Of a stretch of 64,000 nt of DNA, positions 13,267-60,122 are shown piece after piece. The position numbers and the translations under genes were made by a program. The stretch is from Thermoanaerobaculia bacterium (GTDB lineage: Bacteria > Acidobacteriota > Thermoanaerobaculia > UBA5066), in NCBI GenBank assembly GCA_963816185.1, contig CAWFJJ010000024.1:6635-70634 (forward strand), written 5' to 3'. The first letter of the stretch is position 1, and each line of letters starts with the position of its first letter. The notes under the pieces were generated by a model that was given only the letters and a program-made list of their open reading frames with translations, was not told where the DNA came from and searched no databases.

Positions 13267-13865
13267 TTCGTTTCTCCTGCGGGACTGCGGGTGGCTGCGG
13301 TTGTGACGGCCGGCTGCTCATCGGCCCATTCCTTGAGCCGGGTTTGGATTTCGTAGACGACCTTCAGGCTGTCGTAATACTTCACGCCGCGGTTATACCA
13401 GCGGACCACGCGATCCTCCGCCGCGGTCCAGACTTTCACCGGATCGAGGTCGGCGGGCGTCAGTTGGCGCACATTCGTAAAGCGGCCGATCATGGCGAAG
13501 GACAGGACGGTCATCGCCATGCCCATGGCGAATCTCGGCTGCAGCACCGGCTCGCAGCACTCCTCCAAACAACCGGCCGAACAGGCGGCGAGCCAGCGAA
13601 GGCTTGATGATGGCGTGGCTGGGTCCCGCGGTCACCTCGAACAGGATGCGCGTGACCAGTTCGGCAGGCGCGTCGACTGCCGAGGCGCGCTCCATGAAGG
13701 CGACTGCTCCGGCGGAATCGCGAGCCAGTTCCGCGCAGGCCGCGCATCCGGCCAGGTGGGCTTCGAGGGCGGACTTCTCCTCAGCCTGGGCGCGAGCGTT
13801 CCGTCCACGTAGTCGGCCAGCAGGATTTCTACATCCCGCAGTTCACAACATTCCTTTAAAGGCAC
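13263..13865 (-). CDS. Anti-sigma factor (zf-HC2-type N-terminus, single TM); several frameshifts; start approximate
   Basis: LKECCELRDVEILLADYVDGTLAP follows directly after sigma region 4 inside ORF 13632-14624. The C-terminal part is in ORF 13263-13568 with TM helix PVLQPRFAMGMAMTVLSFAMIGRF. Confidence 0.45.
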
Positions 13866-14465
13866 TGAGCCCTTGTAATGCTTGAGGATCCGCCCCAGTT
13901 CGGCGCGGCCCCGATTCAATCTCGACTTCACTGTGCCTTCCGGCACATTCAGCACCTGAGCGATTTCCCGGTATTCCAGCTCTTCCAGATCGCGCAGGAT
14001 CACGGTTTCGCGCAAATCCGGCGAAAGCTTCTGCAGCGCGGCCTGCAGGACCTCGCTCGCTTCCCGCCCGGCCAGCAACCCTTCGGTCCGGCCCATGGAA
14101 GCGGTTTTTTCCTCCAGCATCGGCAACTGCTCTTCGATCGAGCTGCTGGCGCGCTCCAGCTTGCTACGACGGTAATGATCGATCAACAGATTACGCGTCA
14201 GCCGGGAAAGCCACACCGCAAACGAACCCTCGCCGGCCCGGAAGCTTTTGAGCGACCGGAACACGCGCAGGAAGACGTCCTGGGTGAGGTCCTGGGCTTC
14301 GTGATCCGAGCCGGTGAACCGGTAACAGATCGCGTACACACGCCGGGTATGGACTTTGACCAGGTCCTCCCAGGCGGCCTCCTCGCCGCCCAGGCAGCGC
14401 TCGACCAGTTGAGTGTCTGCGTCCAAGAGCCGTCCCAGGATCTCACGAGGCTCGCGAAATCCGAC
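13866..14465 (-). CDS. ECF-type RNA polymerase sigma-70 factor (group 4); start approximate
   Basis: Region 2: LVERCLGGEEAAWEDLVKVHTRRVYAICYRFTGSDHEAQDLTQDVFLRVFRSL. Region 4: LSPDLRETVILRDLEELEYREIAQVLNVPEGTVKSRLNRGRAEL. The track ORF runs on into the anti-sigma factor (stop lost or frameshift). Confidence 0.7.
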
Positions 14466-14565
14466 CCGATATCCGGCTCCAAAGCGATCCCTCTCCGGCG
14501 GCCGAGCGGCTGGGCGTGGTAACCTGTCGGACTGTAGCGATTGCCGCCATGGCGTTGCGTCGTGC

Positions 14566-14593
14566 GAACGAATCCTTGTGTCTCGATATGTTC
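14566..14593 (-). promoter_or_regulatory. Candidate ECF-type autoregulated promoter (GGAAC-N18-TCGTT) upstream of the sigma/anti-sigma operon
   Basis: On the minus strand GGAAC (14593-14589), an 18-nt spacer and TCGTT (14570-14566) sit ~90 nt upstream of the predicted sigma start, in the divergent region shared with the gene at 14746. Confidence 0.3.
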
Positions 14594-14745
14594 CCGGATA
14601 CCGTACTCGTTTATGAGGTTCCACATATGAGAACGAAATCCCCGCATGGAAAGTTCGCTCTACATTCTATCCACATGCGAGGGTATGGCGGGGCCGAGCA
14701 TGATCGAAGTCGATCCGGGACGTCCGAAGGGAGCAGCTGTAAGAG

Positions 14746-15795
14746 ATTGAAAAAGCAACACGTGGGCGCCGGGCTGGGAGTTCTCGCGATCCTCGCCGCC
14801 GTGCTGTTCGTGGTCTACCGCTGGCGCCATTCCGGTTTCGTCTGGGAGAAGTTCGCGGCCGTCTTCAGCGACGTCGACTGGAGCTGGCTGTCGCTGGCCC
14901 TGGCGCTGATCCTGGCGACCTACGTCGGCCGCGCCCTGCGCTGGGAGATCATGCTGCGGCCTTTGACCAAGGGGGTCCGCCTGTGGGGCCTGGTGGTGGC
15001 CACCTGCATCGGATTCACCGCAGTGGTGCTGTTTGGCCGCGCGGGCGAGCCGGTTCGCCCCTATCTCATCGCCCGGAAGGAGGGCGTGTCGTTCTCGAGC
15101 CAGGTGGCCGCCTGGCTGGTGGAGCGCATTCTGGACCTGCTGATGGTCCTGCTGATCTTCGGCATCGCCCTGACGCAGATATCGCGCAGCGGAATCCAGC
15201 CCGGGCCGCACATCCAATCGGCGCTGCAGGCCGCGGGCTGCTGGCGGGAATCACCGGGGCGCTATCCTTGGCCTTGCTGCTGGGGCTTCGGTACTTCCGC
15301 GGAAGCGTCCGGACCCGGCTGATGGATTCCCTATCGTTCCTGCCGGAAGCGCTGCATCAGAAAGTCGCCCGATTCCTGCATGCCTTCGAAGAAGGGATGC
15401 AATCCACGCCAGCGCCAGTCCTACGTCTGGCTGCTGGTGACTTACACGGTCATCGAGTGGCTGGTGATCGCGGGATGTTTTTTCTGCGTCTTCCGGGCGT
15501 TTCCGGCTACGGCGGGATGCGTATTACGGATGTAATCATCGCGTTAGGCTTTGTTGCCTTTGGGAGCGTCCTGCAGATACCGGGGGTGGGCGGCGGCATG
15601 CAGATCGCGACGGTTCTGGTGCTGACCGAGCTCTATGGGGTCAGCCTGGAGGAGGCCAGCGGAATCGCATTGGTGCTTTGGATCATCACATTCGTAGTGA
15701 TTGTGCCGCTGGGGCTGGTTCTGGCGTTCCATGAAGGAATCAAGTGGCGTAGTTTAAGACATATAGACTCGTCTTCCTCAGGCTACGAATTATGA
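14746..15795 (+). CDS. UPF0104 / lysylphosphatidylglycerol-synthase-TM-region family (flippase-like) integral membrane protein; one frameshift near 15200
   Basis: Multi-pass membrane protein GVLAILAAVLFVVYRW...LRWEIMLRP...FTAVVLFGRAGEPVRPYLIARKEGVSFSSQVAAWLVERILD. It continues in ORF 14983-15795 (IALGFVAFGSVLQIPGVGGGMQIATVLVLTELYGVSLEEASGIALVLW). The start is TTG 14746 or GTG 14761. Confidence 0.55.
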   Translation: MEKATRGRRAGSSRDPRRRAVRGLPLAPFRFRLGEVRGRLQRRRLELAVAGPGADPGDLRRPRPALGDHAAAFDQGGPPVGPGGGHLHRIHRSGAVWPRGRAGSPLSHRPEGGRVVLEPGGRLAGGAHSGPADGPADLRHRPDADIAQRNPARAAHPIGAAGRGLLAGITGALSLALLLGLRYFRGSVRTRLMDSLSFLPEALHQKVARFLHAFEEGMQSTPAPVLRLAAGDLHGHRVAGDRGMFFLRLPGVSGYGGMRITDVIIALGFVAFGSVLQIPGVGGGMQIATVLVLTELYGVSLEEASGIALVLWIITFVVIVPLGLVLAFHEGIKWRSLRHIDSSSSGYEL

Positions 15796-16310
15796 CTTGC
15801 CCGTTCTGCCGCCATCGCCAGGACCGGGTGATCGACTCCCGCGAGAGCAAAGAAGGCGACCTGATCCGCCGCCGTCGGGAGTGTCTGAAGTGCCTGCGCC
15901 GGTTCACCACCTACGAGCGCAGCGACGAGATTCCCTACATGGTGGTGAAGAGGGACGGCCGGCGGGAGCGCTTCGACCGCCAAAAGGTGCTGGAAGGGCT
16001 GCTAAGAGCTTGTGAGAAAAGGCCGGTACCCATCGCCAAGCTGGCGGAAGTGGTGGATGCCGTCGAGTCGGCGCTGGCCGAGAACCCGGAACGCGAGGTT
16101 TCGACGACAGCGATCGGGGAACTGGTGTTGGAGCGCCTGAAGAAGCTGGATAAGATCGCCTATGTGCGGTTTGCTTCGGTTTACAAGGACTTTCAGGACG
16201 CGGAATCCTTCCTGGTGGAGCTGAAGGACCTGTTCCAGGACGGAAATGAGCTCGTTGCGAGTCCTGGCAAGCCTGTAACCAAAAGCGATTTCAAGCATCT
16301 TTTGAAATAG
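15792..16310 (+). CDS. nrdR: Transcriptional repressor NrdR
   Basis: Intact 172 aa: MTCPFCRHRQDRVIDSRESKEGDLIRRRRECLKCLRRFTTYE (zinc ribbon) followed by the ATP-cone (YVRFASVYKDF). The start overlaps the upstream stop (ATGA). Confidence 0.9.
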   Translation: MTCPFCRHRQDRVIDSRESKEGDLIRRRRECLKCLRRFTTYERSDEIPYMVVKRDGRRERFDRQKVLEGLLRACEKRPVPIAKLAEVVDAVESALAENPEREVSTTAIGELVLERLKKLDKIAYVRFASVYKDFQDAESFLVELKDLFQDGNELVASPGKPVTKSDFKHLLK

Positions 16311-16427
16311 AGACTTAACTTAATTTCGGAAGACTGATATACTGGATGCGGCTTCGACGCCAAGGCAGGAATTGCATACACTACCGTTGGGTCTAGCTAA
16401 GTCTTTGGAAAACAAGGTGTTTATAGT

Positions 16428-17984
16428 TTGGCGCGGGTGAACCACGTGGATCATTTCGAAGACCAATTCCTAGGCGAGGGTCACGAGCCGCTCGGTGGAC
16501 TTCCTTTCGACGAGGAAGGCGGCTTTTTTCACCCTGAGGAGGTGCATGACGGCGAAGATTTCGCCCACGCGCATCCCGTCGAGGAATCGATTTACACCGA
16601 CGACCCGGTTCGCGTGTATCTGCGCGAAATGGGCGCCGTGCCCCTGCTGACTCGCGAGGGCGAAGTTAATCTGGCCCGCCGCATGGAGCGGGGCAAGCTG
16701 CGGATGCAGAAGGCTATTAGCCGCTCCGCGCTGGTCCAGTTGCGGGCCGTCGAAATCGCCGATCAGATCAAGCACGAGCCCGAGGAACTGGATACCTACG
16801 TGGATCTGGGGGATCTCGAGGAAGAGAGCCCCGCCTACAACAAGCGCCGCAACGAAGTTCGCGCGGACTTGGCCGAGCTGGCGGTTCTGCACAAGAAGCT
16901 GGGGCAGGTATCCGACAAGCTGGATTCGGTTCCGCTCAGCAACAAGAAGCTGCGCCGCAAGTGGATCGGCAAGATGAAGCGCGCCCGGGTGCAGGTTTCC
17001 CAGGCGATCCGGCATCTGCCCTACTACCTGTCGCAGTGGAAGGAATTCACCAAGGAAATCGAGAAGGTCGCGGAAGAGATGTCGCGCCTGGAAGCGGATC
17101 TGCGCAAGATCGAGGGACGTTCGAGCCAGACCGCGCAGACCAAGGCCCGGGAAATCCGGCGCGAAATCCGCAAGCGCGAGGAAATCGCCGGGGCGAACCT
17201 GGGCGACCTCAAGCACACGCTCTCCGTGATCCGCCACGGCGAAATCGAAGCCGAGCGGGCCAAGAAAGATCTGGTCGAGGCCAACCTCCGCCTGGTGGTT
17301 TCCGTCGCCAAGAAGTACGTCAACCGCGGTCTGCACTTGCTGGATCTGATCCAGGAAGGCAACATCGGCCTGATGCGCGCCGCCGACAAGTTCGAATACC
17401 GGCGCGGCTACAAGTTTTCGACCTACGCCACCTGGTGGATCCGGCAGGCCATTACGCGCGCCATCGCCGACCAGTCGCGCACCATTCGTATTCCCGTTCA
17501 CATGAACGAGAGCATGAACAAGTTCCTGCGCGCCACTCGCGAGCTGGAAAAAGAAATGGGCCGCGCGCCGTCGAACGACGAAATCAGCCGGCGCATGGAC
17601 ATTCCGGTGGAGAAGGTCCAGAAGCTGAAGACCATCTCGCGCGATCCGGTGTCGCTCGAAACTCCGGTCGGCCGCGACGGCGAATCCGCCCTGGGCGATC
17701 TGATCGAAGACCGCTGGGTGGGATCGCCGGTGGACGCCGTCATCGACACCAACGTTCGCGACGAGACCGCCAACATCCTCAAGACGCTTTCTCCCAAGGA
17801 GGAGAAGGTGATCCGGCTGCGCTTCGGCATCGGCTGCGAGCGCGAGCATACGCTCGAAGAGATCGGCCAGGAGTTCGACGTCACGCGCGAACGTATCCGG
17901 CAGATCGAAGCCAAGGCGCTGCGGCAACTGCGGTCGCCGGAGCGGGCTCGGCACCTGCGGGCTGCTGCTGGCCGCGCGCGATAA
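16428..17984 (+). CDS. rpoD: RNA polymerase primary sigma factor RpoD
   Basis: Intact 518 aa: [17 protein letters not shown], the rpoD box [71 protein letters not shown], and region 4 [27 protein letters not shown]. Confidence 0.9.
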
Positions 17985-17995
17985 CGCTTCCACAG

Positions 17996-19247
17996 TCAGT
18001 TCGCGACCCGCCAGGGCGAAAACTCCGTCCACGTCTTGAGCGACTTGTTGGCCCACTCCGCGGTCTCGCCGGTGTGACAGGACGTGCAGGAGTTGGGCAT
18101 CTTCAGGCGATCGGCTTCCAACGGGGCGATGAACTTGAACGTGTGGCTGCGCACGTTGGTGGTGGTGAATTCCTGCTCGATCTTCGGCATGTGGCAGTTC
18201 ACGCACTCGTTGCCCGGCGGATCCGGCGGGATGATGAGTGTGCTGCTCGATGCGTCGCCGGTGTGCGGGCCGTTCGGCGAATTCGGGCCGTGGCATTGCA
18301 GGCACAGCTCATTGGCTGGGCGGATCAGGTCGGCGTTGTTCTCCGTGCCGTGCACGTCATGGCAGGTGAAACAGGTGATGCCGCGGGTGTACATCAGGCT
18401 CTGGACGAAGTCATTGCCCTGCATGCGATTCTTATGTGCGGTTCCATCTGGGAAGTGAGTGAACGTCGTTTCGCCCAGCTTGTGATCTTCGAGCTTCCAG
18501 AAATCGCTTAGCTTCTTCGTCGCATCGTTCGTCACAGTGAAGCCGACCGGCCAGTCGTAGTATTTTCCCTGAATCGGATTCGCCAGCGGCTGGCCTTGGG
18601 AGTGGCATTGAATGCAGACGTCGACTCCGCGAGCGCCGAGGCGCGCCGGATTCACGATATTCGCGCGGGAAGGCCGGGCGACATGCAGGCTGCCCGGGCC
18701 GTGGCATTTTTCGCAGCCCACGTTCCATTCGGTGACGGTCTTGGTCTGGATGTTGTAGTTGACCGAGTGGCAGCCGTCGCACAGCGGGCCGGTGGGCCGC
18801 TGCATGTTGTCGGGAGGATAGTGAGCCGCCCACCAATCGGTGCCATTGGCGACCTGATATCGGCTCCAGCGTTGATTGGCCACGTCCCACTGCGCGGGCA
18901 AGGGAAAGTAATCGTCGCCGACCTTGGTGAAGTAGCGCTGCTTCCACTTGCTGCCGTAGACGAAGGCGATGGCGTCCTTGGTGAAGGTGACGATGGCCGG
19001 ATCGGCCTTGCTGAGATCGGGAATGATCGCGTCCGGATGCTCCTTGGGATCGCGCACGACGTTCGCCATGCGGGTCTTCGTCCAGCGCTCGTAGGTCGAG
19101 GCGTGGCAGGTCTTGCAGGCGGCCGATCCGGTGTAGGTGGCCGTCTGCGCGGAGAGCGCCCCGGCGAATGCCGAATGCGAGAAAACCAATCACTCCGAGT
19201 GAGCGCCAGGATCTGGCGAGTTCTCTTGGAAATAGCATTTTGGACAT
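17996..19247 (-). CDS. Octaheme c-type cytochrome (8 CxxCH), periplasmic; frameshift inside the signal peptide
   Basis: Heme motifs CKTCH, CDGCH, CEKCH, CIQCH, CFTCH, CLQCH, CVNCH, CTSCH. ATG 19247 (MSKMLFPRELARSWRSLGVIGFLAFG) joins the main frame at TTG 19189. Confidence 0.7.
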
Positions 19248-19449
19248 ACCCCGTTAGAGATAAGTATGGCAGGAATGAGGCATGAAGAAATACGTTCGTG
19301 CGGTTCTGGACGACCTGAAATCGAAAGCCGGGAAGAAGCAAAATCCGGTGGTGCCGCAGGATCTGAACAACCAGACTCTGTCCAAGGATCCGCAGCAAAA
19401 GGTCCGGCAACTCGACTATCAGGCGCAGAAGGACGAGGAGCGGAGACGC

Positions 19450-20589
19450 TTTCCTAGAATACCGGCGTTCCCGGCCTAGCAGCACGGCGCGGCGGGCGCC
19501 GGTGGCCGAAGGCAGGTTGCCGGGCCGGCTCATGACGAACTCGTGGGCGAGCAGGGCGAAGGCGATGGCTTCTTTGGCGTCCGGGTCGATACCGTGGTCG
19601 GCGCTGGTCGACACGTTGAAACCCGGCAGAAGCTCGCGCAGGCGGCGCATGAGCCAGCGATTGTGAACGCCGCCGCCGGAGGCGATGACTTCGCGCGCGT
19701 CACCTGCATCAGAACCGGAATACGCGTGATCGCCGAAGCGACGGAGCGCGCCGTGAACTCGGTGGCCGTGGCGATCAGAACGTCCAGCGCGAAGGCCGGT
19801 CGCGGCCAGGCCGCTGGCGAACTCCTGGCCGAACTGTTCGCGGCCGGTGGTCTTGGGCGGACGAAGCTTGAAATAGGGATCGGCCAGCATCGACGCGAGC
19901 ATGCGATCGTGGACTTTGGCGCGGCGTGCGATGCGGCCGTCGCGGTCGTAAGTCTGGCGGCCTTCGGTCATGCGGGAAACCAGCGCGTCGATCACCATGT
20001 TGCCGGGGCCCGTGTCGAACGCCAGGACGTCGTCGCGCGTGGCGCCGCCCGGAATCACGGTGATGTTGGCGATGCCGCCGAGGTTCAGCGCGACGCGGCC
20101 GATGCGGCGATGGCGGAACAACAGGTAATCGGCAAGCGGCACCAGGGGAGCGCCATGCCCGCCGGCGGCGATATCGCGCTCGCGGAAATTGGAGATGGTC
20201 CACAGGCCGGTGCGCTCGGCCACGACCGAGGCGTCGCCGATCTGGAACGTGCTGGCGACGCGGCGGCCGAGATAGTTCACCGGCGCGCCTTCGTGAAAAA
20301 TGGTCTGGCCGTGCAGGCCGCACAGCGAAATCGAGTGCAGGGGAACGCGCCGGCGGCGGCAGGTTTCGCGAACGGCTTCGGCGTAAAGCTCGCCCAGCAG
20401 GAAGTGCAGACGCGCGATGGCCGAGGTGTGGGTCATGGTGTTGGACACGCCCAGGATGGCCTCGCGCACGTTCTTGGGGTAGGGAACCGTGTGGAAGGCG
20501 ACCGGCTCGATCTTCTTGCCGCGGATATCGACGATGGCGACGTCGATCCCGTCGAGCGAGGTGCCGCTCATGATGCCGGCGACTCGCAT
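19450..20589 (-). CDS. anmK: Anhydro-N-acetylmuramic acid kinase
   Basis: ATG at 20589: MRVAGIMSGTSLDGIDVAIVDI...GHGAPLVPLADYLLF...AIAFALLAHEFVMSRPGNLPSATGARRAVLLG. The 3' end is approximate. Confidence 0.75.
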
Positions 20590-20602
20590 CAATTCTTTAG
20601 TT

Positions 20603-51155: not shown

Positions 51156-51995
51156 ATGGCCGTTTCTTCCGTCGCCGCCGCCGGTCTCGCCTTCGCGATC
51201 GCTCTTGCGGACGGCGGGAAGTCCGTGCCGATCGACCGATTCACGCTGAAGGTGCCCGGCGTGAAGGGCGCTCTCGTCCTTTCGTTAGAAGGCGTCGACC
51301 TCATCGGCGGCGCCGTCGTCGCGCCCGTGCGCCTCGCGAACGAGACGGACTTCGACGTCCTTTCGCCGAGGATCGACCTCGTTTCCGTCACCGAGACGCG
51401 GCGCGAAGGCGGACGCGACGTGGCGCGCGCGCTCGATGCCGCGGCGCCTTTGCCGCCCGCCTGGGACCTGCTTCGCAAGAGGACGGACGCCGCGGGGCAG
51501 CTCTTTCGGGCCTCTCCGGTCGGGTTCTCTCCGGACACCTCGCTCGTCGTGATCCTCGGGGCCGTGAGCGGCGCCCTCGCAGTGGGATCGTTCGAGGTCG
51601 AGGGTGCGAGAAACCCCGCCCGGCTCGACATCGATTCCGGCTCGCTCTTCGTCACGGACGCGTCGGGACGCATCGTCAGGTGCGCGCTCGACGGGCGCGG
51701 CGCCGCGGAAGTGAAGCAGCGGCCCCCGCAGAGGAGTGACCCGGCGGGAGGACCGTGCGCGCGAGCGCGCGTCCAGGCCCTCGTGTGCCGCACGGCGCCC
51801 GACGGCGGCGCCTGGGCGATCGAGGGGCGCGAAGTGACGCAGCTCGATGCCGAGGGAGGGAGAGTGCGTTCATTCCCCCCCGGGGGCGAAGGCCCGCCGG
51901 TCGCGCTGGCGCTCGGCCCGGACGGAAGGCTTTACGTGGCGACGGCGGGCGAAGGTGGAAGCAGCGGGTCCGTGCGGATCTTCAGGCCCTTCTGA
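51156..51995 (+). CDS. Hypothetical protein, translationally coupled to the helicase
   Basis: ATG sits 2 nt after the helicase TGA; 279 aa; N-terminus MAVSSVAAAGLAFAIALADGG is signal-like; C-terminus ...LGPDGRLYVATAGEGGSSGSVRIF. No family recognised. Confidence 0.4.
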   Translation: MAVSSVAAAGLAFAIALADGGKSVPIDRFTLKVPGVKGALVLSLEGVDLIGGAVVAPVRLANETDFDVLSPRIDLVSVTETRREGGRDVARALDAAAPLPPAWDLLRKRTDAAGQLFRASPVGFSPDTSLVVILGAVSGALAVGSFEVEGARNPARLDIDSGSLFVTDASGRIVRCALDGRGAAEVKQRPPQRSDPAGGPCARARVQALVCRTAPDGGAWAIEGREVTQLDAEGGRVRSFPPGGEGPPVALALGPDGRLYVATAGEGGSSGSVRIFRPF

Positions 51996-51998
51996 CGG

Positions 51999-52406
51999 CT
52001 ACTTTTTCAGGAGCAGATTGAAGTCCGCACGATAGAACGTGCGGCCCTGTCCGTCGCGCCGCGTCGGAATGACGAAGAGCGGGAAGCGGCCCATCTTCTC
52101 CTGCTCGACGGTATACGTGCCCTCGGCGAGGCGCTCGCCTCCGGGCGCGACGAACGTGAGCGAGAACTGGTGCGTTCCGTTCGAAGAAGGTTTCTCGTCG
52201 TACGCCTCGAGGACGACGTCGATCGAGCCCCGTGAATCGGCCGTCTGGACGTGAAACGTCCGGCCGACGTATTGCGCGAAGTTGCGGACCGGCGTGATCG
52301 AGCCCATCGCGCCCACGGCCTTCGTGGCCGCCGACAGCGGACGGACCGCCGCGCCGACGACACCGGTCACGACCGTGAAGAGGAATTTCTTGCGGGTGAT
52401 TTTCAT
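51999..52406 (-). CDS. Small secreted protein of unknown function (family ending ...Y.A.FN); paralog of 52446-52742
   Basis: MKITRKKFLFTVVTGVVGAAVRPLSAATKAVGA signal, then ...HQFSLTFVAPGGERLAEGTYTVEQEKMGRFPLFVIPTRRDGQGRTFYRADFN. Confidence 0.45.
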   Translation of the reverse strand: MKITRKKFLFTVVTGVVGAAVRPLSAATKAVGAMGSITPVRNFAQYVGRTFHVQTADSRGSIDVVLEAYDEKPSSNGTHQFSLTFVAPGGERLAEGTYTVEQEKMGRFPLFVIPTRRDGQGRTFYRADFNLLLKK

Positions 52407-52445
52407 CGAAGACCTCCGGGGACGGTTTGTGCCACGATACGGCGC

Positions 52446-52742
52446 ATGCTCGAGAGCTTGACGTTCGGAGATTTCTCTGGAAGGGTCGGAGAGGGGTTTC
52501 GCCTCGAGGGACCCGCCGTCATCGTCGAGCTGACGCTTGTCGAGGTCACGGACCTCGCGCGGCGCGAAAAACCGGGTCCGCGGCGGTCGCCGTTTTCGCT
52601 CGTCTTCCACGGCCCGTTCAGCCCCGTAATGCCCCAGCGCACATACGCGCTCGAGCATGCCTCGCTCGGGCGCCTCGACATCTTCCTCGTACCGATCGGG
52701 CCCGACGCCGACGGCATGCGGTACGAGGCGGTCTTCAACTGA
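52446..52742 (+). CDS. Small cytoplasmic paralog of the preceding protein, divergently transcribed from a 39-bp intergenic region
   Basis: 98 aa: ...RSPFSLVFHGPFSPVMPQRTYALEHASLGRLDIFLVPIGPDADGMRYEAVFN aligns with the C-terminal 60 aa of the gene at 51999-52406 (FSL.F, TY..E, G...F..P, Y.A.FN). Confidence 0.4.
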   Translation: MLESLTFGDFSGRVGEGFRLEGPAVIVELTLVEVTDLARREKPGPRRSPFSLVFHGPFSPVMPQRTYALEHASLGRLDIFLVPIGPDADGMRYEAVFN

Positions 52743-53238
52743 CTCTCGCCGCGGACACCGCGGGACGCCGCTCCATCAGCAGATAGACGCCGTGCTCCTC
52801 GGCGGGCGCGAACCCGAGACGCTCGTAGAGACTTCGCGCGGGGTTCGACATCTCCACGTGGATCGTCAGGGTCACTTCGCGCCCCTTCGCTTCCGCGATG
52901 AGCTCGGCCAGGAGCCGCGTTCCGATTCCCGTCCCCCGGAACCGAGGCAGGAGAGCGATGTCCATGAGCCGGATCTCTCTCGGCCTGCGGTGGACATAGA
53001 GCCGCCCCACGGGCACCCCATCCACCTCGATCACGTCGTACGTCGCGCCTTCGTAGTGGGCGCGGTAATGCGCGTCCTGGGCGTCGAACTGCATCTTCAC
53101 GAACGCGGCCTTCTGCTCGTCCGTCCAGGGCACCGGCGCCAGCTCCTCCGCGCGCGTCGACGCGTACACGGAGAGGAGGAACTCCCGGTCGTCGGGGCGG
53201 ACGGGGCGGAGGGTCACCATTCGTCGGGTGCTCCTCAC
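52735..53238 (-). CDS. GNAT-family N-acetyltransferase; last gene of the adhesin/tail-collar operon
   Basis: VTLRPVRPDDREFLLSVYASTR...GVPVGRLYVHRRPREIRLMDIALLPRFRGTGIGTRLLAELIAEAKGREVTLTIHVEMSNPARSLYERLGF. 4-bp overlap with the upstream gene. Confidence 0.75.
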   Translation of the reverse strand: MRSTRRMVTLRPVRPDDREFLLSVYASTRAEELAPVPWTDEQKAAFVKMQFDAQDAHYRAHYEGATYDVIEVDGVPVGRLYVHRRPREIRLMDIALLPRFRGTGIGTRLLAELIAEAKGREVTLTIHVEMSNPARSLYERLGFAPAEEHGVYLLMERRPAVSAARVS

Positions 53239-53750
53239 GTCCGCGGCGGGTAGACGCCCTGCAGGGCGATGCAGAAGTTGAGCGTGAGGTACGGCTGCAT
53301 GTTGTTGTGCGGCTGGTCGGCGCCGGCCGGTGCGATCGCCTGCGAGCTGAGCTGCGTCACGGCGCCCGGCACGGCGTAGGCCCCGATTCCGATGCCCTTG
53401 GCCAGCAACTCGTTCCCGGCATTCGTGTCCACCCCATCTGCCTTGGAAGCCTGGAGCCCGTGCGAATGCGAAGGGATCTCCGACTCGAGCAGGGTAACGG
53501 TCTCGCTCCCGCCGGTCTCGCCGAGATCGTGGAGCGAGAGGCCGGGACCCTGTCCCGGGTGCATCGGCGCGTTGCCTTGCATGTTCGGGAGCGCGAAGTT
53601 GCTCCTCCCGTCCCCGCCGTACGTCGTCCCAAGCAGGGAGAACAGCGCCGTGTTCTGCGAGAGAGGCAGGATCTGGCCGTCGCAGAACGCCCAGCCCGCT
53701 GGGGCGAAGTTGAACGGGAAGATGCGGATTTCGGCGACGAATGGGTCCAT
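53235..53750 (-). CDS. Phage tail-collar domain protein (MdpB / COG4675), paralog 1
   Basis: MDPFVAEIRIFPFNFAPAGWAFCDGQILPLSQNTALFSLLGTTYGGDGRSNFALPNMQGNAPMH...SHSH. Confidence 0.8.
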   Translation of the reverse strand: MDPFVAEIRIFPFNFAPAGWAFCDGQILPLSQNTALFSLLGTTYGGDGRSNFALPNMQGNAPMHPGQGPGLSLHDLGETGGSETVTLLESEIPSHSHGLQASKADGVDTNAGNELLAKGIGIGAYAVPGAVTQLSSQAIAPAGADQPHNNMQPYLTLNFCIALQGVYPPRT

Positions 53751-53759
53751 GGCGTCTCC

Positions 53760-54269
53760 TCAGGTCTGTGACGGGAAGATGCCGAAGAGAGAAATGATGA
53801 AGTCGACGCAGAGGTACGGCTGGAAGTTCGTGTGAGGCTGGCTTCCTCCCGTGCTGCCGACGGCGGACGGGCTCAGCGGGGTCAGAGGCGCATCGGTGCC
53901 GTACGGGGTGATCGCGGCGTTCGGAGACTTCGCGGGGAGCTGGCCCTGGGGGGCGGTGCCCGTCGCGGGATTGTTCGACGCGAGAAACGCGTGTGAGTGC
54001 GCCGGAATCTGGCTGACCGTCAGGGTGATCTCCTCCACGCCGCCCGTCTCCGCGAGCGTAAAGCCGTTCCCGAAGTGGAGCGGGACACGACCGCGCAGGT
54101 CGGGCAGCGCGAACGTGGACTGCCCGTCGCCGCCGTACGTCGTGCCGATCAGGTTGAAGAGCGTTTCGTACTCCGAGATCGGCAGGAGCTGGCCTTCGCA
54201 GAACATCCAGCCCGCGGGCGCGAAGTTGCCCGCGAACATCCGGATCTCACCGACGTAAGGCTGGGCCAT
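53760..54269 (-). CDS. Phage tail-collar domain protein (MdpB / COG4675), paralog 2
   Basis: MAQPYVGEIRMFAGNFAPAGWMFCEGQLLPISEYETLFNLIGTTYGGDGQSTFALPDLRGRVPLHFG...PAHSH. Confidence 0.8.
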   Translation of the reverse strand: MAQPYVGEIRMFAGNFAPAGWMFCEGQLLPISEYETLFNLIGTTYGGDGQSTFALPDLRGRVPLHFGNGFTLAETGGVEEITLTVSQIPAHSHAFLASNNPATGTAPQGQLPAKSPNAAITPYGTDAPLTPLSPSAVGSTGGSQPHTNFQPYLCVDFIISLFGIFPSQT

Positions 54270-54279
54270 CGCGTGCCTC

Positions 54280-54783
54280 CTAGGTCTGGCTCGGGAAGAT
54301 GCCCTGGAGGGCGATCGAGAAGTTCAGGACGAGGAACGGCTGCATGTTGAGGTGCGCCTGCGAGCCGCCCACGTTGGCGAGGGCGTTGGGGGCCATGGCC
54401 ACGGGGTTGCCGGAGCCGTAGAGCTGGGCCCCGGCGGACTGCGCGAGCATGACGTTCGACGCCGGGACGTTCGTCGACGCGACCGCGCTGACCGCATTGG
54501 CGACGTGCGCATGCGTGGGGATCTCCGAAATCGAGAGCGTGTGGGCCTGCTCGCCGCCTTGCTCTCCGAGGGTGTGGCCGTTCCCCATGTGGATCGGGGC
54601 GCGCCCCTGCAGATTGGGAAGCCCGAAGTTCACGCGCCCGTCTCCTCCGTAGGTCGTGCCCAGCAGCGAGAACAGCGCCTGGTTCTGATTGATCGGCAGG
54701 AGCTGGCCGTCGCAGGTCGCCCAGCCCTTCGGTGGGAAGCCGAAGCTCATGATCCGGATCTCGGCGAGGAAGGGTTCCGCCAT
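54280..54783 (-). CDS. Phage tail-collar domain protein (MdpB / COG4675), paralog 3
   Basis: MAEPFLAEIRIMSFGFPPKGWATCDGQLLPINQNQALFSLLGTTYGGDGRVNFGLPNLQGRAPIHMG...PTHAH. Confidence 0.8.
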   Translation of the reverse strand: MAEPFLAEIRIMSFGFPPKGWATCDGQLLPINQNQALFSLLGTTYGGDGRVNFGLPNLQGRAPIHMGNGHTLGEQGGEQAHTLSISEIPTHAHVANAVSAVASTNVPASNVMLAQSAGAQLYGSGNPVAMAPNALANVGGSQAHLNMQPFLVLNFSIALQGIFPSQT

Positions 54784-54800
54784 CGCTGTTTCTCCTCGTG

Positions 54801-57800
54801 TTAGAAGCCGCCGGGTTCGACGCAGGTCGAGAACCCGCTCGTGGCGGAGATGAGGGTCGTGCCGCCGACGCCGAAGTTGCCGGGCGCGCTCCCCGGGTTC
54901 TGGCTGTTCACGTAGTTCTCGACGTCCGGCGTCGACGTCGACCCGCCGGGCAGGCCGACGATTCCGAACGCGTTGATCGCGGAATTCGTCCCCTGCTTGC
55001 GGAGGCCGATGCCGGAGGCGATGAAGCCGCCTCCGCTGTCACCCGCCGTCGTGTTGCCCGTGATCTCGAGGCATACGGTCTCGTTGGCGCTGGAAGCGCT
55101 GCCGGAAGAGACGCGAATGCCGAACGTCGTCCCGCTTCCCGAGGTCGGGGCCGCGACGGTGTTCGTCCGGATCCTCACGTGCGCCTGGCCGGTCGCGCCG
55201 ATCGTGTTGACGAGGATACCGTTCCCGTCCGTCTGGCTGATGTTGTTCGCGCCGCCGGCCGTGCCGTCGCCGATGCTCAGGTTCAGGACGGGCGTGTCGC
55301 TCGACGAGAACGTGCTCGTCGTGCCGCCGCCGATCCCGGCGCTGCTGAAGATGTTGTGCGCGACGATCGTGTTTCCGGCGATCGTGCCGGTGTACGTCGT
55401 GAGGCCGTTCGATCCGAAGCCGATCCCGAGTCCCTTCACGTTCGTGATCGAGTTGTTCGTGATGACGAAGAACCCGGTGCCGCGGCCGTTGAGCGCCGTG
55501 TTGATCCCCTGCGTCCCCATCTGGTTGGCCGCGCTCTGTCCCGAGATCACGTTGTTCGTGATCGCGATCGCGTTCGTCGAGAGGTCGGACCCGTACGTCC
55601 CCGCGGGCGCGAGGGTGCTCGTCGCGTTTCCGCCGAGGAACAGGATCCCCGCGTCGCTCGGGAAGTTCGTGATCGTGTTCCCGTTGATCGTAGCCTTCGA
55701 GTAGCTCGCGACGGTGGACGCCGAGCCGAAGCCCACGAGCCGGATCGCCGATCCCTTCGACGCCGTCGTGAGCGTGCTGCTCGTGAGCGTGTTGTTCGAG
55801 ATGTTCGTGTTGCTGATCGTGCCGTCGAACTGGAAGACGTCCACGCCGTGGTAGTAGGCGTTCGTCAGCGTGCTGCCCGTGATCGTCAGCGTTCCCGTGA
55901 GGTTCTTCTCGTTGCCGATCGTGGGCGAGTAGGCGCCGGCGTTGAAGGCGATGTTCGAGTCTCCGGTTCCGCTGGCGGTACCGGAGTTGTTGATCGTGCC
56001 GTTGACGAAGCTGAACGTCTGGACGTTATTGGATCCCTTCACGCCGCTGTGCCCCGTGTTCTGGATGCTCATCGAGGTGAGCGAGACGCTCTGGGCGTTC
56101 GACAGGAGGACACCGTCTCCGGTCACGCTCTGGATCGTGCCGCCCGTCCCCGCGCCCCCCGTCCCCGTGACGGTGAAGCTGCCCGTCGAGTTCTGCAGGA
56201 CGATGCCGTTGGCGCCCCCGTTCGCGGACACGGCCTGGAAGGTGAACGCGCCTCCGGCGGCGTTCAGCGACACCGCCGTGCCGGTCGTCGTCGTCACCGT
56301 GACGCCGTTCTGCACGGTCGCGCCCGTGATCGCGCCCGAGTTCGTCACGCCCGTGCTCGAGCCCGCGCTGACGTCGAGGGAGCTGACCGTGAGCGTGTTC
56401 GCCGCGAGCGTGAGAGTCGAATTGAGCGTGGGCTTGCCGCCCGCGCCGATCGTGAGGGGCCCGAGCGTGAACGTCGTGCCCTGGCCCCAGAGCGTCAGGC
56501 CGGCCTTGTTCAGCGAGGCGCCCGCGTAGTTGGACGAGCCCGTGTGCAGGAAGATCGTCTGGTTCGCAGAGGCGTTCGTCACCGCCTGCGCGACCGTCGC
56601 GAGAGGCTCGTGCGACCGCCCGCGCGAGGCCGAGTCGGAGCCGCCCGAGTTGTTCACGTACCAGACCATGCCGGTCAAGGTGACGTTCAAGGGCGCGGTC
56701 GCGCTCGCGGGCGTCCCGGTCCCGCCGCTGTCGCTTGAGACCGTATAGGTGCACGTCGAGGACGTCGCGCCCGCGTTCGGCGTGTAGACGAAGCGGCCGA
56801 GTCCGTCGAAGGTCGAGATGGCCGCGCCGGCGGTGCAACCCGCGGCGGTCACGGTGACGCTGCCGGCCGGCTGGGCCGACGTGAGGAGCCCCGACACCGT
56901 CGCGACGGCGGGAGTCGTCGGCGCGCCTGTGACGCCGGTGACGTAGAGCTGCGTGTTCCCGACGCCCGAGTAGGTCTGCGTCACGATCGCGGGTGCGACC
57001 GAGAGCGTGTAGGTGCCGCTCGTTCCGAAGCAGCCGTTTGCGTCGGTCGCCTTCACCGTGATCGTGAACGTGCCGGTCTGGGTCGGCGTGCCGGTGAGGA
57101 CACCGGCGGTCGAAAGCGAGACACCCGTCGGGAGGGAGCCCGTCGTGAGGGTGAACGTCGCGGGCGTGTGCGTCCCGACGCCCGACTGCGTAAACGTGAA
57201 ATTGCCGGCTGGGGCGAGCGCCGTGTTGTACGTCGCGATCGTCGAGGTCGGGTTCGAGACCGTGATCGTCTGGCAGGAGATCACGAGCGTGTAGGTCGCG
57301 CCCGTGCCCGTGCAGCCGTTCGCGTCCGTCACCGTGACGACGATCGGGAACGTGCCGGACGAAGAGGGCGTGCCGGAGAGGACGCCCGCGGCCGACAGGG
57401 TCAGCCCGGCCGGGAGCGTCGAGGATGTCGTGAACGTCGCCGGCGTGTGCGTGCCGACGCCGGCCTGGGTGAACGTCTGGCTGAACGGCGCGTCGACGGT
57501 GCCCGTCGTCGTTCCGGGGTTCGAGACCGTGATCGTCTGGCAGGAGATCACGAGCGTGTAGGTCGCGCCCGTGCCCGTGCAGCCGTTCGCGTCCGTCACC
57601 TTGACGACGATCGGGAACGTGCCGTTCTGTCCCGGCGTGCCCGAGAGCGTTCCGTCCGCCGCGAGCGTCAGGCCGCCCGGGAGCGTCGAGGACGTCGTGA
57701 ACGTCGCCGTGCCGGCCGCGCCGGTCTGCGTGAACGTCTGGTTGAAGGGGGCGTCGACCGTGCCCGTCGTCACGCCCGGGTTCGTGATCGTGATCGTCGG

Positions 57801-60122
57801 GCAGACGGTCACGAGGCTGTACGAGGTCGCGCCCGAGCAGCCGGCGGCGTCGGTCGCGGTGACGACGATCGGGAAGGTGCCGCCCTGCGTCGGCGTGCCC
57901 GAGAGAACGCCGGCCGAGAAGGTCATCCCGGCGGGCAAGGCGCCCGTCTCCGTGAGCGTGTAGGGCGACGTCCCGCCGCTCGCCGTGAACGTCACGGGGC
58001 CGTACGGCGAGCCGACGGGGCCCGAGGCGAGCGTCGGGGGCGCGACGGTGATCGTGACGCCGTTACACGTCACGGTGACCACGTAGTCCTGGCTCCCGAC
58101 GCAGCCGCCGACCGAATCGGTCGCCGAGATCGTGATCGGGAACGTCCCGGTCTGGGTGGGCGTCCCGTCGAGAGTGGCGCCGGTGAAATTCATGCCCGTC
58201 GGCAAGGAGCCGGCCTCGGCGAACGTGTAGGGCCCCGTTCCGCCGCTCGCCGTGAACGTCGTACTCGGGAAGGGTGAGCCGGCCAGGACGGTCGGCAGCG
58301 AGCTCGGCGAAAGCGTTATGGACGTCCCCGAGCAGGCCACGACCACGAGGTAGTCGCGGCTCGCCGTGCAGCCGTTCGAATCCGTGACGGTGACCGTGAT
58401 CGGGAAGCTCCCGGTCTCGGTCGGCGTGCCCGCGAGCGTGTCGATCGAGAAGCTCATCCCGTTCGGGAGGGCGCCCGTCTCGGAGAACGTGACGGAGCCG
58501 ATGCCGCCTGTCTGCGTGAACGTCGTCGCGGGGTACGGGGTGCCGGTCGTTCCCTGCGGGAGCGTCGCGGGAGACAGGGTGATCGACTGGCAGCTCACGA
58601 CGAGCGTGTACGTCGCGCTCGTCCCCGTGCAGCCGTTCGCGTCCGTGACGGTGACGCCGATCGGGAACGAGCCGGTCTGACCGGGCGTGCCCGACAGCGT
58701 CCCGTTCGCCGCGAGGGACATTCCCGACGGGAGCGTCGACGCCGTCGTGAACGTCGCGCCGCCGATCGCGCCCGTCTGCGTGAAGGTCTGGCTGAACGCG
58801 GTGCCGATGGTCGCGGTCGCCGTCGCGGGGTTCGTGACGACGATCGTCTGGCAGCCGATCGAGAGGTTGTAAGTCGAGCTCGTGCCCGTGCAGAGGTTCG
58901 CGTCCGTGACCGTCACGACGATCGGGAAGAGGCCGGTCTGGGTCGGCGTTCCCGCGAGGACGCCGTTCACGGCGAGATTCAGCCCGGCCGGAAGCGTCGA
59001 CGCGGTCGTGAATGTCGCCGATCCGATCGCGCCGGCCTGCGTGAACGTCTGGCTGAACGCCGTACCGGCCGTTCCGGCGGCCACGGCCGGGTTCGTCACC
59101 GTGATCGTCTGGCAGGCGATGACGAGGTGGTACGTCGCGCCGCTGCCCGTGCAGCCGTTCGCGTCGGTCGCCGTCACGAGGATGTCGAAGCCGCCCGCCT
59201 GCGTCGGCGTGCCCGAGAGGACGCCGTTCGCCGCGAGCGTCATGCCGATCGGAAGGGCGCTCGCCGTCGTGAACGTCGTCGCCCCGACGCCACCCGCCTG
59301 CGTGAACGTCTGGCTGAAGAAGACGTTTGCCGTGCCCGTCGCCGTCACGGGGTTCGTCACGGTGATGGTCTGGCAGGAGATCACGAGCGTGTACGTCGCG
59401 CCCGTCCCCGTGCAACCGCTCGCGTCGGTCGCGGTCACGGTGATCGGGAAGGTGCCCGGCTGGGTCGGCGTGCCCGAGAGCGTCCCGTTCGGAGCGAGCG
59501 TCAGGCCGGCGGGCAGCGGCGACGCCGTCGTGTACGTCTTCGTCCCCGTGCCGCCGGAGGACGTGAAGGTCTGGCTGAACGGCACGTTGACCGTGCCCGA
59601 CGCCGTCAAGGGGTTCGTCACCGTGATCGTGCTCGTGCACGCCGGGACCCAGTAGCCCGAGATGTCGATGATGAAGTCGGCCGCCCCCGCCGAGACGTTC
59701 GCGAGCGCGACGGTACCCGTGTTGTCGCTCGCAAGGGCCACGATCGTGTTGCTCGCGCGGGTCTTGCCCGCCGAGAAAGCCAGGACCAGCGTCGGGGGTG
59801 CCGCCGCATCGCCCGCATAGAGCTGCGCGTAGCCCATTTCCGCCGGCGAGACGACGGTGAGGTTGACGGCCAGGCCTAGGGCGGTCGGCGGCACGCCGCA
59901 GGCTCCCGTGAGCGTGAAGAGACGTGTCTCGTTCGGATTCAGGGCGGGGCCTCCCAGAGGGTCTGCCGGGTTCCGCGTGTCGACCGCTCGGCAGGGAGAG
60001 ATCGTCATGAGGGCTTGGCCCCCGGCCGCGGAGAGAGGGAGCGGCAGGGAAAGCAGCGCCAGCGCGACGACGAGAAATCCCGGACGGGGAAGTGAACGGT
60101 CCTCGCGGTCGAGCAGTCTCAT
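54801..60122 (-). CDS. Giant (1773-aa) secreted surface protein: N-terminal conserved domain, ~12 tandem putative Ig / cadherin-like repeats, C-terminal right-handed parallel beta-helix (pectin-lyase-fold) region
   Basis: Intact ORF. Signal region ...RPGFLVVALALLSLPLPLSAAGG. N-domain ISPCRAVDTRNP...LFTLTGACGVP...VNLTVVSPAEMGY. Repeats of ...LPAGLTL..NGTLSGTPTQ.GTFPITVTATDANGCTGTGATYTLVISCQTITVTNP.... Beta-helix segment MVWYVNNSGGSDSASRG...TIFLHTGSSNY plus many NxxxNxxI rungs. The gene is 17 bp upstream of the first tail-collar gene. Confidence 0.8.
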   Translation of the reverse strand: MRLLDREDRSLPRPGFLVVALALLSLPLPLSAAGGQALMTISPCRAVDTRNPADPLGGPALNPNETRLFTLTGACGVPPTALGLAVNLTVVSPAEMGYAQLYAGDAAAPPTLVLAFSAGKTRASNTIVALASDNTGTVALANVSAGAADFIIDISGYWVPACTSTITVTNPLTASGTVNVPFSQTFTSSGGTGTKTYTTASPLPAGLTLAPNGTLSGTPTQPGTFPITVTATDASGCTGTGATYTLVISCQTITVTNPVTATGTANVFFSQTFTQAGGVGATTFTTASALPIGMTLAANGVLSGTPTQAGGFDILVTATDANGCTGSGATYHLVIACQTITVTNPAVAAGTAGTAFSQTFTQAGAIGSATFTTASTLPAGLNLAVNGVLAGTPTQTGLFPIVVTVTDANLCTGTSSTYNLSIGCQTIVVTNPATATATIGTAFSQTFTQTGAIGGATFTTASTLPSGMSLAANGTLSGTPGQTGSFPIGVTVTDANGCTGTSATYTLVVSCQSITLSPATLPQGTTGTPYPATTFTQTGGIGSVTFSETGALPNGMSFSIDTLAGTPTETGSFPITVTVTDSNGCTASRDYLVVVACSGTSITLSPSSLPTVLAGSPFPSTTFTASGGTGPYTFAEAGSLPTGMNFTGATLDGTPTQTGTFPITISATDSVGGCVGSQDYVVTVTCNGVTITVAPPTLASGPVGSPYGPVTFTASGGTSPYTLTETGALPAGMTFSAGVLSGTPTQGGTFPIVVTATDAAGCSGATSYSLVTVCPTITITNPGVTTGTVDAPFNQTFTQTGAAGTATFTTSSTLPGGLTLAADGTLSGTPGQNGTFPIVVKVTDANGCTGTGATYTLVISCQTITVSNPGTTTGTVDAPFSQTFTQAGVGTHTPATFTTSSTLPAGLTLSAAGVLSGTPSSSGTFPIVVTVTDANGCTGTGATYTLVISCQTITVSNPTSTIATYNTALAPAGNFTFTQSGVGTHTPATFTLTTGSLPTGVSLSTAGVLTGTPTQTGTFTITVKATDANGCFGTSGTYTLSVAPAIVTQTYSGVGNTQLYVTGVTGAPTTPAVATVSGLLTSAQPAGSVTVTAAGCTAGAAISTFDGLGRFVYTPNAGATSSTCTYTVSSDSGGTGTPASATAPLNVTLTGMVWYVNNSGGSDSASRGRSHEPLATVAQAVTNASANQTIFLHTGSSNYAGASLNKAGLTLWGQGTTFTLGPLTIGAGGKPTLNSTLTLAANTLTVSSLDVSAGSSTGVTNSGAITGATVQNGVTVTTTTGTAVSLNAAGGAFTFQAVSANGGANGIVLQNSTGSFTVTGTGGAGTGGTIQSVTGDGVLLSNAQSVSLTSMSIQNTGHSGVKGSNNVQTFSFVNGTINNSGTASGTGDSNIAFNAGAYSPTIGNEKNLTGTLTITGSTLTNAYYHGVDVFQFDGTISNTNISNNTLTSSTLTTASKGSAIRLVGFGSASTVASYSKATINGNTITNFPSDAGILFLGGNATSTLAPAGTYGSDLSTNAIAITNNVISGQSAANQMGTQGINTALNGRGTGFFVITNNSITNVKGLGIGFGSNGLTTYTGTIAGNTIVAHNIFSSAGIGGGTTSTFSSSDTPVLNLSIGDGTAGGANNISQTDGNGILVNTIGATGQAHVRIRTNTVAAPTSGSGTTFGIRVSSGSASSANETVCLEITGNTTAGDSGGGFIASGIGLRKQGTNSAINAFGIVGLPGGSTSTPDVENYVNSQNPGSAPGNFGVGGTTLISATSGFSTCVEPGGF
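56990..59640. repeat. Tandem ~270-bp (90-codon) direct repeats inside the giant adhesin gene (Ig-domain coding repeats)
   Basis: Near-identical blocks, e.g. TGGCAGGAGATCACGAGCGTGTAGGTCGCGCCCGTGCCCGTGCAGCCGTTCGCGTCCGTCACC at 57271 and 57541, with diverged copies at ~57001, ~59101 and ~59371; period 270 bp. Confidence 0.6.

Follow-up and report, generated by a model that had tools for sequence, protein, structure and literature searches.

Why should a bacterial chromosome carry three genes for phage tail-collar proteins in a row, directly behind the gene for a giant secreted protein? The question is raised by a 64,000-nucleotide stretch of DNA from a Thermoanaerobaculia bacterium of the Acidobacteriota (GenBank assembly GCA_963816185.1, contig CAWFJJ010000024.1, positions 6,635 to 70,634 of the forward strand), called the window below. 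A preliminary description, made from the sequence, had proposed a five-gene operon encoding a domesticated receptor-binding module, composed of an adhesin and a collar tip, rather than a prophage or tailocin. We find that the region 51999–60122 is one copy of a non-phage cassette of seven genes, six on the minus strand and one, encoding a small DUF6916 protein, on the plus strand. The reading we favor, with a probability of roughly 0.55, is that the cassette is an extracellular ligand-recognition (adhesion) module in which a heterotrimeric tip works with the giant protein as a stalk.

The collar proteins resemble phage fiber tips

The giant gene (54801–60122, minus strand, 1773 amino acids (aa)) is followed on the same strand by collar A (54280–54783, 167 aa), collar B (53760–54269, 169 aa) and collar C (53235–53750, 171 aa), with gaps of 17, 10 and 9 bp, as described earlier. 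Each of the three small proteins matched the Collar family PF07484, with Pfam E-values of 1.9e-26, 2.8e-30 and 2.8e-27, respectively, and 92–104 bits to the hidden Markov model (HMM), for which the cut-off is 24; collar C also showed a weak match to Gp10_C. A GAGGAG-type ribosome-binding site precedes each collar gene. The same searches identified He_PIG repeats in the giant and a GNAT domain (PF00583) in the fifth gene, and all five minus-strand open reading frames (ORFs) were found at the coordinates originally assigned to them.

The paralogs are 49–56% identical over their full length. They had been described as having conserved N-termini and diverged C-terminal halves; the N-terminal conservation is real, but divergence is confined to residues ~96–138, and the last ~28 residues are again conserved. 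Two histidines, H91 and H93, of an IPxHxH motif (IPTHAH in A, IPAHSH in B and IPSHSH in C) are invariant in all three proteins, and collar C carries a GPGLS insertion that is typical of its orthogroup. The proteins matched phage tail-fiber families along their whole length. The PDB matches of collar B were the phage tail fibers 8kec, 1ocy and 9nxk, and the collars also matched 9qgo. Features of the T4-type tip are present: the IPxHxH motif aligns to LPSHQH of 8kec, and the C-terminal QPYL segment aligns as well. The IPxHxH motif and the QP..QPYL strand at the C-terminus both fall inside this fiber-tip alignment, which makes the region of variability the distal insertion that separates them. 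In phage T4, the gp12 and gp37 tips are trimeric and bind receptors, and a metal on the trimer axis is held by six histidines, two from the HxH motif of each chain.

The cassette is conserved across phyla

Genomes were scanned, one per species, with an alignment of the three collars as the query, yielding at least 589 relatives. The locus counts given here rest on the best 80 of these, in which collar A is 65–84% identical, and these loci were searched as six-frame ORFs with the proteins of the window. They belong to the Acidobacteriota, Verrucomicrobiota, Chloroflexota, Bacteroidota, Pseudomonadota (alpha, beta and gamma classes, including the cultured Mesorhizobium and Chiayiivirga), Actinomycetota and Gemmatimonadota. 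Copies also reside on megaplasmids of Deinococcus and Aminobacter, and overall the cassette is present in at least eight bacterial phyla.

Essentially all of these loci have their collar genes in triplets. The order A-B-C was found in 75 of 85 runs; the remainder are runs at contig ends, two B-A-C, one A-B-B-B-C and one double triplet. Each position in the triplet forms its own orthogroup, with proteins scoring 260–320 bits to their orthologs versus 150–180 bits to the paralogs. Residues 1–95 and 140–167 are mostly 80–99% conserved within each orthogroup, while conservation at ~96–138 is only 10–50%. Judged from the alignments, a conserved base with hypervariable loops would be the pattern expected of a receptor-binding tip. 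The collar cores are 65–88% identical across phyla, a range that would probably be usual for core housekeeping proteins, and collar B is 80–88% identical to the best 119 metagenome protein clusters among the matches listed. A look-up for proteins exactly matching collar B returned none.

Several triplets may also lie side by side: three in a Gemmatimonadales metagenome-assembled genome, two in Chthoniobacter and two, both B-A-C, on an IMG/VR contig (multi-triplet loci L041:3733–13303, L070:10001–14693 and L085:5693–8906).

The triplet is regularly accompanied by a giant ORF of 1,200 to >3,300 aa on the same strand, located either directly upstream (gap 15–400 bp) or downstream of the block formed by the triplet, GNAT and DUF6916 genes. 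An iterative profile search detected a module homologous to the last ~570–720 aa of the giant in the window at 73 of the 80 loci. Reverse look-ups from the beta-helix homologs P0123, P0157 and P0184 (38–51% identical) landed beside collar triplets. The pairing of triplet and giant is thus conserved rather than accidental, and the proposed association of adhesin and triplet holds in the neighborhood comparison. The distant beta-helix/Big_9 homologs P0187 and P0189 (30–32% identity) have no adjoining collar triplet, and the coupling is therefore limited to the closer members of the family. A GNAT ortholog was found in ~70 and a DUF6916 protein in ~65 of the 80 loci.

A Chloroflexales copy is 80% identical to that of the window, compared to 66–75% for many copies from Thermoanaerobaculia. 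Because a copy from another phylum is the closer one, these sequence identities point to horizontal transfer of the cassette.

On plasmid pAA01 of Aminobacter aminovorans KCTC 2477 (L104), where the cassette comprises genes AA2016_RS29755–29785, the RefSeq annotation reads "hypothetical protein", three "tail fiber protein" entries, a hypothetical protein, GNAT and another hypothetical protein, and the giant, seen in part, exceeds 4,100 aa. The cassette there is followed by a SapC family protein (16561–17358). At L103, which carries neither GNAT nor DUF6916, proteins with lamin-tail-domain (LTD) and Big_3_5 domains follow the cassette (13322–16733).

Natural fusions and a virophage precedent argue for a heterotrimer

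Collar B was searched against 1.84 billion cluster-representative proteins. The collar family is very large, with 57,207 proteins at E-values up to 0.001 and 3,235 at up to 1e-30. The top matches were dominated by fusions. Many of these are proteins of 507–560 aa with exactly three full collar units (P0313, P0314, P0316, P0319, P0321 and others), and single-chain proteins with three units number in the dozens. Two-unit proteins of 330–350 aa, including P0002, occur in B-C and B-A combinations, and the same library holds giant proteins with 3, 6, 9 or 12 collar units. All seven of the larger fusions (>1000 aa) that were scanned with Pfam contained exactly three Collar domains, which in six of the seven were joined to Big_9, Cadherin_5, He_PIG, SdrD_B, Calx-beta, Golvesin_C or FG-GAP domains. 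Several triple-collar fusions start with Sec signals or LEDRxLL-type N-termini, and P0407 combines three collars with a Big_9 domain and the beginning of a module like that at the C-terminus of the giant. The attachment of triple collars to repeat-rich surface proteins argues that the triple-collar unit works outside the cell, in line with the combination of adhesin and collar tip proposed earlier.

Among the larger matches, P0312, P0348, P0381, P0328, P0390 and P0396 (1,300–6,000 aa) carry their collars in blocks of three (3, 6 or 12), several with Planctomycete-type LEDRxLL N-termini. From their sequences, these proteins look like single-chain pseudo-trimers built into huge surface proteins.

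An experimental precedent comes from the virophage DSLV2 (Aquatic Virophage 1 lineage), in which three proteins encoded by consecutive PF07484 genes co-purify as a ~55-kDa 1:1:1 complex that forms ~16-nm fibers and binds Synechococcus cells (J Virol 2025, PMC12724248). Taken together, the fixed order with one member of each orthogroup, the natural triple fusions and the virophage precedent argue for a single A-B-C assembly, and the invariance of H91 and H93 in all three chains is a fourth observation that fits the same idea. Collars A, B and C of the present organism would most likely form one 1:1:1 heterotrimer, and the heterotrimer suggested previously thus gains indirect support.

The giant protein combines Ig-like repeats with a beta-helix

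The giant consists of a signal peptide, an N-terminal domain, ten He_PIG repeats, one immunoglobulin (Ig)-like domain (Big_9/cadherin-like), a right-handed beta-helix and a C-terminal cap. The Sec-type signal peptide, MRLLDREDRSLPRPGFLVVALALLSLPLPLSAA, was read from the translation and comprises aa 1–33 (60024–60122, minus strand). The ten Ig-like He_PIG repeats (PF05345, Pfam E-value 2.9e-88) occupy ~aa 166–1050 (56973–59627, minus strand). The description of the giant as a secreted Ig-repeat protein agrees with both features. Most giants in the related loci whose 5' end falls inside the locus also start with a Sec-type signal. The repeat stalk is variable, and at other loci He_PIG is replaced by Big_9, Cadherin_5, CLIPPER or other repeats.

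The remainder, aa 1051–1773 (54804–56972, minus strand), is common to the giants beside collar triplets and will be called the B module. An Ig-like sandwich (aa ~1051–1156) comes first, then a right-handed parallel beta-helix of ~570 aa, and last a small C-terminal cap. The last ~620 aa of the giant had no Pfam match. The whole B module, 723 residues, was modeled from a 56-sequence alignment with a predicted local distance difference test (pLDDT) score of 92.7 and a predicted template modeling (pTM) score of 0.92, and the model of the C-terminus conforms to the single-chain, pectin-lyase-like right-handed parallel beta-helix fold. The predicted structure and the fold comparison both confirm the beta-helix that had been proposed from the sequence.

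In two beta-helix alignments, A2 (53 sequences) and A3 (56 sequences), Asp, Glu, His, Lys and Arg were nowhere invariant or nearly so; the conserved positions were only a ladder of Gly, Asn, Ile, Val and Leu. Alignment of such repetitive helices is imperfect, so that the missing catalytic residues are suggestive only. The Pfam Beta_helix model was detected in 10 of 53 family members. The beta-helix is probably non-catalytic.

The cassette ends with GNAT and DUF6916 genes

The preliminary description had let the cassette end at 52735 after five genes, but two genes encoding DUF6916 proteins (PF21880) come after that point. Both were brought out by analysis of GC content at third codon positions (GC3) by reading frame, by Pfam and by comparison with a syntenic contig. 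The larger protein (51999–52406, minus strand, 135 aa) scored 68.7 bits to PF21880, for which the cut-off is 27 (E-value 4.8e-19); its gene has a GGAGG ribosome-binding site and is supported by an independent gene call. The smaller one (52446–52742, plus strand, 98 aa) is, in translation, identical to P0192, which was called as a gene with PF21880 by NCBI/ENA, and an independent assembly has the same gene call. An AlphaFold2 (AF2) model of this protein is a six-stranded beta-barrel (pLDDT 91), and it has no signal peptide.

The GNAT N-acetyltransferase (52735–53238, minus strand) scored 58 bits to Acetyltransf_1, above the cut-off of 20.7 (E-value 1.2e-15). It had been described as overlapping collar C by 4 bp. 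The gene is indeed tightly packed behind collar C, but the overlap is uncertain, since only the ATG at 53220 has a ribosome-binding site (GAGGAG, 12 nt upstream), and the resulting 161-aa protein matches the ortholog at L001 in length; the alternative GTG at 53238 would give 167 aa. RimI equivalog models scored below their cut-off, so the protein is not RimI itself. Its nearest PDB matches were RimI-type and N-terminal acetyltransferases, and two of the three collars start with Met-Ala; acetylation of the collar N-termini is therefore a reasonable guess at what the enzyme might do.

The GNAT and small DUF6916 genes are convergent, and their 3' ends overlap by 8 bp (52735–52742). Such a tail-to-tail arrangement was seen in 39 of 55 loci where both genes are close, the domain ends lying a median of 6 bp apart. 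The conservation of this antisense-overlapping pair across phyla suggests that the two genes may be subject to transcriptional interference or coupled regulation. Convergent 3' ends that abut or overlap were also observed at L004, L019, L029, L039 and other loci. At L106 (13848–14712), there are no collar genes in the vicinity of a DUF6916–GNAT pair, which is ~4 kb away from a Big_9/Cadherin_5 protein and a Peptidase_M10 fragment; the pair can therefore occur without the triplet.

NCBIfam has no family for the giant or for the collars, and none of the seven proteins matched a PADLOC model. Pfam and NCBIfam-type domain searches found no toxin domain in any component. A scan for sigma-70 promoters and intrinsic terminators returned no promoters and one terminator-like site, on the wrong strand.

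Tat signals recur near the collars

The larger DUF6916 protein starts with an N-terminal export signal, MKITRKKFLFTVVTGVVGAAV (MKITRKKFLF..., at the N-terminus of 51999–52406, minus strand, from the translation). The signal reads T-R-K-K-F-L-F, with a single Arg and no RR, whereas DUF6916 orthologs from other phyla have canonical twin-arginine (Tat) signals. In 33 of 60 loci, an ORF with an RR signal is found no more than 3.5 kb away, a ~2.4-fold enrichment over the outer flanks. In many loci, a 230–290-aa Tat-signal protein, which we call the gap protein, is encoded between collar C and GNAT (L004:5707–6567, L005:4291–5139, L015:11627–12424, L020:6252–7133, L026:11807–12754 and others); it is absent from the window. 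No Pfam domain was found in the gap protein, and the idea that it might be a relative of DUF6916 was rejected, as hhalign gave a probability of only 2.8%. Export of a folded collar trimer by hitch-hiking on a Tat substrate is a guess, though one open to experiment.

The surroundings are cellular

The neighboring genes identified by Pfam encode Ysc84, an ABC ATPase, a T2SSE ATPase, DAHP synthase, an asparaginase and a DEAD helicase. A POR/TPP oxidoreductase lies divergently upstream of the giant, within the 3.9 kb of the window beyond the giant gene. On the other side, plus-strand genes for a 279-aa protein of unknown function, the DEAD-box helicase, a ~196-aa protein and the asparaginase converge on the cassette, ending at 51995. 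The ~196-aa protein had no Pfam match and begins with a signal-like hydrophobic stretch. Further off in the window are MutS, AnmK, DAP decarboxylase and a GAF protein.

Pfam searches of 42–64 kb and of the larger ORFs elsewhere in the window detected no sheath, tube, baseplate, portal, terminase or integrase. The claim that no phage genes lie within 10 kb of the cassette thus stands on the low-coordinate side; on the high-coordinate side, the check covers the 3.9 kb of the window past the giant gene. The only PHROGs matches were to the collars and GNAT. Phage homologs of the collars are at most ~40% identical (794 records, all <60%), and relatives were found on just 18 of 2.9 million viral contigs. 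With cellular neighbors and no phage structural, packaging or integration genes in view, the cassette is not a prophage or tailocin, in agreement with the preliminary description.

The GC content of the window rises from ~0.60 at 1–42 kb to 0.67–0.71 at 44–64 kb. This does not mark the cassette as an island, because the high-GC part holds housekeeping genes too. At 18652–23160 (minus strand), a 1502-aa ORF contains MutS domains I–V (aa 11–797) followed in the same frame by an AnmK anhydro-MurNAc kinase domain (aa 858–1229) with no stop in between, and may represent either a fused gene or a pair of genes in frame by chance.

Discussion

The conserved pairing of collars and giant, together with the lack of phage genes in the searches described above, supports the original view of a domesticated receptor-binding module. 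In the model that we favor, collars A, B and C, which are stand-alone homologs of the distal tip of T4-type fibers, would assemble 1:1:1. The base of the trimer would be clamped by a metal ion held in the three HxH motifs, and the hypervariable distal loops (~96–138) would form the face that binds a lineage-specific ligand. The Sec-exported giant, with its Ig-like repeats and beta-helix, would serve as the stalk that the trimer works with or docks on. GNAT and the two DUF6916 beta-barrel proteins may be accessory factors for modification, assembly or export. We infer the formation of the heterotrimer in this organism, the metal binding, the extracellular location of the split collars, their contact with the giant, the ligand and the target of GNAT.

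Several points weigh against this model. The 80 loci are the closest relatives, and the conservation figures hold for this subfamily and not for all of PF07484. The physical link between the trimer and the beta-helix is likewise something that we infer, and a single-chain right-handed beta-helix offers no obvious three-fold docking surface. Moreover, none of the three collars has a signal peptide, nor do the gaps of 9–17 bp leave space for one, so that surface display would need some other export route. One such route can be imagined in which the split trimer is pre-assembled and metal-loaded in the cytoplasm, maybe acetylated by GNAT, and hitch-hikes out through the Tat pathway to dock on the giant stalk; we regard this elaboration as doubtful. 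If true, it would describe a new, horizontally exchangeable surface organelle with a phage-derived, programmable heterotrimeric head on a non-phage stalk, which diversifies through its tip loops and has the Tat-signal DUF6916 or gap protein as a carrier partner.

Chief among the alternatives, although unlikely, is that the cassette is a targeted polysaccharide enzyme. The beta-helix would then be a hydrolase, lyase or epimerase similar to a tailspike depolymerase or AlgE4, with the collar trimer as its targeting lectin, and the cassette would go beyond adhesion to remodel or degrade exopolysaccharide of its own matrix, of prey or of a competitor. The absence of invariant or near-invariant Asp, Glu, His, Lys and Arg from the 53- and 56-sequence alignments argues against this, as does the detection of Pfam Beta_helix in only 10 of 53 members, and the non-enzymatic adhesins PfbA and Vag8, which have the same fold, scored nearly as high in the fold comparison. 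Next in order, and unlikely too, comes the possibility of three separate homotrimeric tips, one each of A, B and C, and with them three binding specificities. All phage collar tips of known structure (1ocy, 8kec, 9nxk) are homotrimers, and each paralog has its own variable loop region; yet separate homotrimers would not lead us to expect the strict one-each A-B-C order across phyla or the single-chain fusions with three units or multiples of three (two-unit B-C and B-A fusions exist as well), and a comparable triplet, that of the virophage, was shown experimentally to be a heterotrimer (PMC12724248).

The remaining explanations are less probable again. The collar complex, alone or on the giant, might be a lectin-like bacteriocin or contact-dependent weapon, with GNAT and DUF6916 acting like immunity or toxin–antitoxin proteins. 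We consider this quite improbable: GNAT with a ~100-aa partner is superficially like the GNAT-type toxin–antitoxin pairs, the pair occurs without collars at L106, the tip loops are hypervariable, and there are signs of horizontal transfer with plasmid-borne copies in some taxa, but no toxin domain or PADLOC match was found for any component, DUF6916 is a beta-barrel and not an RHH/DUF1778 antitoxin, its gene is usually convergent with that of GNAT rather than co-transcribed, and 65–88% identity of the collar cores across phyla is unusual for arms-race proteins. It is hardly likely that the collars stay in the cytoplasm, for instance to help in assembly or quality control or to serve for storage or structure, with a purely regulatory link to the giant. 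The absence of signal peptides from the three collars, from GNAT and from the small DUF6916 protein would fit such a role, whereas the secretion signals and extracellular repeat domains of the fused triple-collar proteins, the receptor-binding tip fold with its hypervariable distal loops and the enrichment of Tat-signal accessory proteins in the loci would not. Finally, a decayed prophage or tailocin remnant is effectively refuted: the collar domains are of phage origin, but no other phage genes were found around the cassette within the window, the same cassette occurs in eight phyla in varied, non-phage chromosomal contexts, and the scarcity of relatives on viral contigs (18 loci in 2.9 million) goes along with phage homologs that are at most ~40% identical.

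The closest known system is that of DSLV2, which like the cassette has three consecutive small genes encoding a PF07484 collar plus a tip. Its 1:1:1 heterotrimer was demonstrated by co-purification, native polyacrylamide gel electrophoresis and electron microscopy; the collar is conserved, while the head varies and binds a glycan on the cell surface (PMC12724248). However, the DSLV2 trimer sits on a viral capsid and is encoded beside capsid genes, whereas the present cassette is chromosomal, is tied to a giant protein, GNAT and DUF6916, and is spread over eight phyla; the likeness is one of gene arrangement and protein family. The T4 gp12 and gp37-type tips (1OCY, 1PDI, 5IV5, 8KEC) share with the collars the domain itself, the HxH motif and the C-terminal QPxxxxQPYL strand, but are homotrimers at the end of long shafts in virions, while the cassette collars are shaft-less ~170-aa proteins in three fixed paralogs outside a phage. 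MdpB, MrpB and RhiB (COG4675, "microcystin-dependent protein") belong to the same Pfam/COG family, and JGI uses this name for the collar orthologs. The rhiABCD operon lacks both an A-B-C triplet and a giant beta-helix protein; RhiABC was considered as a collar triplet and rejected, since only RhiB has a Collar domain (PMC13133039). COG4675 proteins have been detected in soil metaproteomes (PMC5579227), showing that members of the broader family are expressed in soil.

Beta-helix adhesins, tailspikes and enzymes of known structure (PfbA 3ZPP, Vag8 7AKV, 6F7K/7EEA, AlgE4 2PYG) are only 7–19% identical to the helix of the giant, which differs from them in its fusion to ten He_PIG repeats and in its genetic coupling with a collar triplet. 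Bacteria re-use phage fiber and tip modules for cell-surface recognition in other settings, such as the R- and F-type tailocins and the mosaic adhesive trimer fibers of Bdellovibrio. These systems use long homotrimeric fibers, to which the tailocins add a sheath, tube and baseplate. In contrast, the cassette has no sheath, tube or baseplate, and its three small chains are separate proteins.

Collar tips, beta-helix stalks, GNAT enzymes and the virophage collar heterotrimer are thus already known. What appears to be undescribed is the bacterial cassette as a whole, its breadth across phyla and the obligatory coupling of A-B-C to the beta-helix module, to DUF6916 and to a GNAT of its own. Giant proteins that contain three collars in a single chain likewise appear to be undescribed. 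In the open-access literature, we found no paper on DUF6916/PF21880, and searches on COG4675 and PF07484 turned up no such bacterial cassette. Public records call the collar genes only "tail fiber protein", "microcystin-dependent protein" or "hypothetical protein".

If the favored model is correct, binding heads of phage origin, heterotrimeric and coupled to giant adhesins, would be present in many bacteria of soil and sediment, among them the cultured genera Mesorhizobium, Aminobacter, Flavobacterium, Chiayiivirga and Deinococcus. Heterotrimeric collar tips would then be a general solution that extends beyond virophages and is also realized as single-chain pseudo-trimers in giant proteins. 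For the bacteria themselves, the cassette would represent a new route of cell-surface or cell–cell recognition, and a natural scaffold with exchangeable specificity loops.

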